The position numbers and the translations under genes were made by a program. Shown one piece after another: positions 1 to 282 of a stretch of 282 bases of DNA; position 1 is the stretch's first letter, and every line of letters begins with the position of its first letter. The DNA comes from a phage, in sequence record X15720.1; one strand, given 5' to 3'. The notes under the pieces are model-generated. The model did no database searches and was not told the origin of the DNA. It was given only the letters and a program-made list of their open reading frames with translations.

Positions 1-203
1 CAATTGAAATGTCTGTTGGTTCTGGTGGTGTTTGTTCTGCTCGCGATTGTGCTACTGTTGATATTCATCCTCGTACTTCTGGTAATAATGTTTTTGTTGG
101 TGTGATTTGTTCTAGCGCTAAATGGACCTCCGGTCGTGTGATTGGTACCATCGCTACGACTCAGGTTATTCATGAATACCAAGTCCTTCAGCCGCTTAAA
201 TAA
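1..203 (+). CDS. G: Major spike protein G of a phiX174-like microvirus (Bullavirinae), C-terminal ~66 codons; 5'-partial, continuing upstream of the window
   Basis: The frame is open from the window edge (first complete codon at 3-5: att gaa atg...) to TAA at 201-203, so ATG 9-11 is probably internal. The translation [20 protein letters not shown] (42-101) resembles the phiX174 G block [20 protein letters not shown] as I recall it, with about 13 of 20 identical. The ending QVI...LQPLK-stop (186-203) matches the phiX174 G terminus (ctc cag cca ctt aag tga there; ctt cag ccg ctt aaa taa here). The middle (102-185) is divergent, so this is a homolog, not phiX174 itself. Codon usage is strongly T-ending (Gly 7/7 GGT, Cys 3/3 TGT, Val mostly GTT), typical of the microvirus viral strand. 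The comparison is from memory, not a database search. Confidence 0.82.
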
Positions 204-282
204 AAGGCTGCCGCACTCCCGGTTAGATGCCTGCCCAGTGTAGGGCAGCCGATAAACTAGGAACGTGGAAGGCGTTAGCCGC
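204..282 (+). other. Noncoding region between gene G and the next gene (probably G-H intergenic); candidate complementary-strand origin region
   Basis: No credible start codon with a ribosome-binding site in 79 nt after the G stop, whereas in phiX174 gene H starts about 11 nt after the G stop. GC content is about 60% by my count (48/79), against a T-rich coding region. It contains the stem-loop and two CTG trinucleotides (208-210, 231-233). The origin assignment is inference. Confidence 0.3.
229..250 (+). other. GC-rich stem-loop in the intergenic region downstream of gene G; candidate origin-associated or weak terminator hairpin
   Basis: Inverted repeat: ctgccc (231-236) pairs with gggcag (243-248) around a 6-nt loop agtgta (237-242), plus an outer g229-c250 pair after a c230/c249 mismatch. 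No T-run follows (251-260 is gataaactag), so it is not a canonical rho-independent terminator. Confidence 0.5.

Follow-up and report, generated by a model that had tools for sequence, protein, structure and literature searches.

The 282-nt stretch of phage DNA analysed here (the window) very probably derives from Escherichia phage alpha3 (Microviridae, Bullavirinae, Alphatrevirus). It carries the C-terminal end of gene G with its stop codon, followed by part of a G4-type origin with a 20-nt deletion. Aligned directly with alpha3 (NC_001330, X60322, DQ085810), 282 of the 282 bases are identical, and the sole difference is one 20-nt gap. No finding spoke against the assignment to alpha3, to gene G or to the origin. 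The same three records were the top matches in a megablast search of 50,697 phage records, at 99.7% in two pieces, followed by St-1 (94.1%), phiK (92.7%) and Lilleven (88.5%), with the WA13-like and ID-series alphatreviruses at approximately 77% DNA identity to the window. This near-identity to the reference genomes is that of a member of the species Alphatrevirus alpha3. The phage, its gene G, the protein structure (PDB 1M06) and the alpha3 complementary-strand origin are all already known, and the deletion in the origin is the sole oddity of the window. We are inclined to read it as the mark of a laboratory-made origin mutant, for reasons of geometry set out below. The features located in the window are collected in Table 1.

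Table 1. Features of the 282-nt window, numbered from its first base
Feature	Position	Strand	Basis or remark
Last two bases of the Pro121 codon of alpha3 gene G	1..2	+	Window starts mid-codon, at the second base of codon 121
Codons 122-187 of alpha3 major spike protein G, C-terminal third of the beta-barrel spike subunit	3..200	+	1M06 chain G, Pfam, DNA identity
TAA stop of gene G	201..203	+	Frame reading and alpha3 CDS
G-H intergenic spacer, first 79 nt; homologue of the G4-type primase-dependent origin (oric)	204..282	+	G4 alignment, conservation, literature; origin runs past the window end
Putative stem-loop III homologue, 5' arm GGCTGCC	206..212	+	Pairs with 244-250
Local hairpin CTGCCC-AGTGTA-GGGCAG (not retained as a conserved element)	231..248 (arms 231-236, 243-248)	+	alpha3 minimum-free-energy fold
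Putative stem-loop III homologue, 3' arm GGCAGCC	244..250	+	Intact alpha3 has GGCAG-A-CC with a bulged A
Junction of the 20-nt deletion relative to alpha3	248..249	.	Missing ACCGAGCCGTACGGAGATAC, NC_001330 5005-5024
First 18 nt of the 28-nt primer-RNA template	265..282	+	Homology with G4 3970-3997
Hairpin I, 5' arm GGAAGGCG	267-274	+	Homology and alpha3 fold
GCGTTAGC mini-hairpin motif (GCGNNAGC) inside Hairpin I	272..279	+	Located by sequence; PMC13037366
Hairpin I, loop and then 3 nt of the 3' arm	275-279 and 280-282	+	Homology and alpha3 fold

The coding part and its relatives

In alpha3, the G coding sequence occupies positions 1140-1703 of the alpha3 sequence L001, and the window begins at L001 position 1501. 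Frame 3 (window 3-203) translates into 66 aa followed by a stop, while the ORF listed mechanically at 9-203 comprises 64 aa. The Pfam family PF02306 (Phage_G) recognises the 66-aa peptide at E = 6.5e-12, its 46 bits exceeding the cut-off of 25, and the match spans positions 117-175 of the 175-position profile. In PDB entries 1M06, 1M0F and 1RB8, residues 122-187 of the alpha3 G chain equal the peptide at every position (100% identity; E = 4.7e-40). Through this identity to a solved chain, the peptide can be assigned to the beta-barrel spike fold, whose pentamers sit at the 5-fold vertices; there are 12 such vertex spikes, and each consists of five copies of G.

An earlier note, made from the letters of the stretch alone, had taken the ORF for the tail of a spike protein G gene rather than a standalone 64-aa peptide, and the Pfam match, chain G of 1M06 and the alpha3 ORF all bear this out. 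In the alpha3 records, outside the window, G is an ORF of 187 aa with F upstream and H downstream, as the note had expected of the flanking sequence; the ATG at 9-11 is accordingly internal Met124. No in-frame stop lies 5' of the window in alpha3, and the ATG at 9 is not a genuine start. A gene of its own beginning at this ATG therefore has practically no chance of being the correct reading: it does appear in the mechanical ORF list, but the alpha3 frame remains open for 121 codons further upstream, as far as the annotated G start, and the peptide aligns to residues 122-187 of the solved G structures.

The homology to Microviridae G proteins proposed in the note is likewise confirmed, far beyond chance, by significant matches to the alpha3, G4 and phiX174 G chains, the weaker PDB matches being those of G4 (E = 1.1e-11) and phiX174 (E = 3.9e-10), within an E range of 1e-11 to 3e-9. 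In a tblastn search, the peptide matched 571 microvirus records, nine of them at an identity of at least 90% and the remainder all below 60%. When the G proteins were aligned together, the window peptide was 95% identical to that of St-1, 92% to phiK, 94% to Lilleven, 53% to WA13, 44% to phiX174 and 43% to G4. A PRTxGNNV[FY]VG block and the terminal LQPLK-stop are kept in eight of eight aligned sequences (alpha3, St-1, phiK, Lilleven, WA13, phiX174 and G4 being represented), in agreement with the likeness to the phiX174 C-terminus that had been noticed in both. The 20 residues between them, encoded at 102-161, share just some three to four identities with phiX174 and G4; the note had described these residues as differing from both phages, and had placed them exactly. 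A weak PDB match of the peptide (window 3-200) was also recorded to avidin (2C4I_A, E = 0.0027), with no stretch passing alone; both proteins are beta-barrels, and the match is probably due to chance.

From this divergence, the note had guessed at a different lineage, either alpha3-, St-1- or phiK-like or an uncharacterised relative, with a possible bearing on host range. The first half of the guess stands, with alpha3 itself as the source (282/282 bases). The second half, an uncharacterised relative, is unsupported because the peptide is 100% identical to a protein of solved structure (1M06), and the bearing on host range is speculative. Similarly, the description of the protein as a divergent homolog holds relative to phiX174 (44%) and G4 (43%) and fails relative to alpha3 (100%). 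An uncharacterised Bullavirinae lineage with a diverged G and possible consequences for host range would be compatible with the G identity of only 43-47% to phiX174 and G4, but is very improbable in view of the 100% nucleotide and amino acid identity to alpha3, with St-1 (94%) and phiK (93%) the next relatives at the DNA level. The coding part thus represents a textbook, crystallised protein of a reference phage and adds nothing on spike diversity or host range.

Base composition changes within the coding part. The fraction of T at third codon positions falls from 0.89 (window 3-110) to 0.43 (window 111-200); over whole alpha3 genes it is 0.70 in G, 0.49 in F and 0.45 in H, and in the last 30 codons of G it is 0.43. 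Ordinary composition within G is therefore limited to approximately its last 30 codons. The drop might stem from an old recombination boundary or from a constraint imposed by the neighbouring origin. A hydrophobic, Leu/Val-rich ORF in the +1 frame (window 4-105; L001 1348-1605), which measures 33 aa in the window and 85 aa in alpha3, was rejected as a gene: a stop interrupts it in St-1 and phiK, and with T at 68% of third codon positions it is explained as a by-product of T-rich third positions. At the other end of the coding part, positions 1-6 form the palindrome CAATTG (an MfeI/MunI site) exactly at the start of the window, which may hint at a cloned or sequenced restriction fragment.

The G-H spacer as a probable complementary-strand origin

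The last 79 bases of the window fall within a primase recognition site that ranks among the best studied, and a scan ending at the G stop codon misses them. The alpha3 spacer aligns column for column with the F-G spacer of G4 (G4 3881-4022), in whose record an 'RNA primer of replication' is annotated at 3970-3997 and an 'origin of compl. strand synthesis' (rep_origin) at 3998. The spacer is present in one piece in 31 phage records. These comprise 27 alphatrevirus records at 91-100% identity and four G4-group records (ID52, NC6 and vB_1081 are represented) at 81% identity over 98% of the alpha3 spacer, in which it is located between F and G. Its conservation is far above that of the flanking gene, at 91-100% even where G is only about 77% identical. 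As judged from ID52 and NC6 against alpha3, the origin cassette is homologous between genera from stop codon to Shine-Dalgarno sequence, lying in the F-G spacer in Gequatrovirus and in the G-H spacer in Alphatrevirus.

On single-stranded DNA coated with SSB, the G4 origin (G4ori) is made up of three stem-loops; primase, with no helper other than SSB, initiates at the T of a CTG located 3' of them, and its primer is at most 28 nt long (PMC6783573). In Hairpin I of the St-1 and alpha3 origins, the mini-hairpin GCGTTAGC takes the place of the GCGAAAGC of G4 (PMC13037366, citing Sims, Capon and Dressler 1979). This mini-hairpin has been proposed to form an alternative structure of unusual stability that keeps SSB away from the priming site (PMC13037366). 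Priming by DnaG with SSB only was reported for alpha3, St-1 and phiK, as far as the original study is relayed in a later paper (Sims, Capon and Dressler 1979, via PMC13037366).

We infer origin activity of the alpha3 spacer from this literature and from homology with G4. On packaged single-stranded viral DNA, the G-H spacer would act as a G4-type origin of complementary-strand synthesis. As in G4, its stem-loops would keep SSB off the flanking DNA, and E. coli DnaG primase, aided by SSB only, would begin a primer of approximately 28 nt at the T of the CTG just 3' of Hairpin I. The window would then carry the stem-loop III homologue and the 5' half of Hairpin I, without the start site. The complete Hairpin I is seen in the alpha3 records and shows one compensatory pair across relatives; in the window (267-282), its 5' arm and loop are complete and its 3' arm is cut off after 3 nt. 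The start trinucleotide CTG lies about 11 nt past the window end and is present in alpha3 and all relatives as CTCCTGC. The Hairpin I loop of ID52 and NC6 (GCGTAGC) is nearer to the alpha3 type than to the GCGAAAGC of G4.

Upstream of Hairpin I, the long-range stem 206-212/244-250 appears to be the conserved stem-loop III, an assignment moderately supported by comparative pairing. Across 16 phages, 99% of the alignment cells in this stem are paired. Two of its Watson-Crick pairs, 209/247 and 210/246, show compensatory changes (T-A to C-G in 12 of the 16 phages; G-C to A-T in Lilleven and NC28), a covariation that rests on few independent substitution events, probably three. When folded as single-stranded DNA, the G4 spacer forms exactly three stem-loops (z = -4.7), and its stem-loop III is the 5'-most, with a long stem and a bulged A (GGCCGCCCC...GGGGCGG-A-CC), as found in the minimum-free-energy fold. 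The local hairpin at 231-248 competes with stem-loop III for a common 3' arm, GGGCAG, making the two helices mutually exclusive. This hairpin was rejected as a conserved element in favour of the long-range stem because it persists across the alignment through G.T wobbles only (in 12 of 16 phages at one pair), with no compensatory change. RNAalifold also suggested an alternative helix between the stem III loop, CTCCCGG, and CCGTACGG in the block missing from the window (alignment columns 27 and 64); at these columns, phiK has a double change from C-G to T-A, ID62 breaks the pair and NC28 has a wobble.

Searches for other kinds of element returned little. The window matched no Rfam family at E values up to 1, as expected since the origin element works as DNA. 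Terminator and promoter scans of the window and of alpha3 1100-1900 gave nothing beyond shuffled expectation, and a T_G terminator role for the hairpins is consequently unsupported by a simple terminator scan.

A 20-nt gap centred on a restriction site

The gap removes all 20 nt of the conserved block between stem-loop III and Hairpin I, leaving the junction GGGCAG|CCGATAAAC. The missing ACCGAGCCGTACGGAGATAC is present in the three alpha3 genome records, in an independent H-gene record (M25640) and in St-1, phiK, Lilleven and WA13. None of the 31 phage records holding the spacer shows the deletion (0/31); all retain the 20 bases. Across 16 phages, including members of the G4 group, 16 of the 20 columns are invariant, making the block as conserved as Hairpin I. 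With its loss, stem III and Hairpin I are 15 nt apart in the window, against 35 nt in intact alpha3. The loss would also leave stem III as a perfect 7-bp helix, because the bulged A is deleted and the CC is now supplied by the downstream CCGA.

The deletion is arranged as 7 + 6 + 7 nt around CGTACG, with its centre (5014.5) coinciding with that of the palindrome. CGTACG, the recognition site of SplI/BsiWI, occurs once in the 6,087-nt alpha3 genome, and the spacer has no other 6-bp palindrome; a 20-nt deletion placed at random in the spacer would have a chance of 1/116 (~0.009) of being centred on this site. The junction is without microhomology.

The junction was sought widely. An exact search yielded no match in IMG/VR, GTDB genomes or JGI metagenomes, and window 150-282 had no megablast match in E. 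coli genomes and plasmids (PLSDB). A gapped pattern allowing any spacing of 3-33 nt retrieved eight IMG/VR contigs, all with intact spacing, and none in the metagenomes. Full-text literature searches for the junction and wild-type strings returned no papers, and a search of literature and records found no description of an alpha3 minus-origin deletion mutant. A metagenome-derived alphatrevirus contig, IMGVR_UViG_3300045988_036090 (6,143 nt), has intact origin spacing and is longer than any cultured relative except NC29.

Exact centring on the unique CGTACG, together with the lack of junction microhomology, makes a laboratory-made deletion the likeliest explanation, and we hold it somewhat probable that the window comes from a minus-origin mutant engineered in vitro, a reading drawn post hoc and solely from the geometry of the deletion. 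Replicative-form DNA would have been cut at the unique SplI/BsiWI site, trimmed by exonuclease by approximately 10 bp from each side and religated to give a minus-origin mutant; exactly symmetric resection is plausible after exonuclease treatment, yet not required by it. Kodaira, Godson and Taketo reportedly published minus-origin mutants of alpha3, G4 and phiK in 1995. Work on origin mutants of this kind probably dates back to the 1980s and 1990s.

It is unlikely, but credible, that the gap arose spontaneously in an alpha3 stock, whether natural or passaged in the laboratory. Intergenic deletions are known to arise in evolved microviruses, and length variants of microviruses do get deposited, as illustrated by phiX174 records of 5,356 and 5,359 nt against 5,386. 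Stem III is intact in the window, even perfected to a bulge-free 7 bp, and the loss could be tolerable if other priming routes exist. Slippage deletions usually involve some microhomology, however, and this junction has none; the gap is also centred exactly on a unique restriction site (p ~0.009), and what it takes away is the best-conserved part of the origin (16 of 20 columns invariant). Neither this gap nor any other length variant was present in the other records and contigs searched.

The gap might instead be an error in the deposited or derived sequence, such as an early gel-reading omission or an assembly artefact, the real phage being wild-type alpha3. That the remaining 282 bases are identical to alpha3 fits such an error, as does the GC-rich and structured nature of the region, a context in which old sequencing methods made errors. 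Compression artefacts lose a few bases rather than 20, though, and the missing block is not itself a strong hairpin; a reading error also leaves the exact symmetry about CGTACG unexplained. On these grounds, we regard a sequence error as improbable.

The consequences of the deletion for priming can be framed through G4, where, in the model, the placing of SSB by the stem-loops lets two primases bind at an appropriate distance (PMC6783573). By analogy with this positioning model, the deleted copy would be expected to show impaired primase-only priming and a greater dependence on other priming routes. It is possible, though doubtful, that the gap belongs to a viable phage, natural or laboratory-derived, that replicates without the most conserved origin block and with the spacing reduced from 35 to 15 nt. 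If so, the block and spacing would be dispensable for primase/SSB priming, or alpha3 would be able to switch to another priming route, such as the PriA/DnaB primosome or RNA polymerase, and such a phage would offer a ready-made test of what the block and the stem-loop spacing contribute to primase/SSB priming.

Comparison with known systems

The closest known counterpart of the coding part is the alpha3 spike protein G (NP_039598; chain G of 1M06, 1M0F and 1RB8), which has the same 66 residues, codons, stop and downstream spacer. There is no difference in the coding part, of which the window covers only the last third of the gene. The spike G proteins of phiX174 (1AL0/2BPA) and G4 (1GFF) belong to the same family and have the PRTxGNNV[FY]VG block and LQPLK C-terminus in common with the window. 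They differ from it in overall identity (44% and 43%, respectively, over 66 residues) and most strongly in the 20-residue segment between the conserved blocks, which is largely unrelated.

For the noncoding part, the reference system is G4oric (NC_001420 ~3890-3998), which can be aligned along the whole spacer and has in common with alpha3 Hairpin I, a stem-loop III with a bulge and, outside the window, the CTG start. By homology and from the literature, the mechanism would also be the same, with primase requiring SSB only. The two origins differ in location, that of G4 lying in the F-G spacer and that of alpha3 in the G-H spacer, and in the Hairpin I loop motif, which is GCGAAAGC in G4 and GCGTTAGC in alpha3. 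Alpha3-type phages have nothing that corresponds to the 3' arm of G4 stem-loop II (TCTCCG). Unlike G4oric, the window is without the 20-nt conserved block, in which the homologue of the other, 5' arm of this G4 stem-loop (CGGAGA) is located. The negative-strand origins of wild-type alpha3, St-1 and phiK, as far as they are relayed in the citing paper (Sims, Capon and Dressler 1979, via PMC13037366), represent the same element in the same position, and the wild-type alpha3 origin sequence is identical to the window outside the gap.
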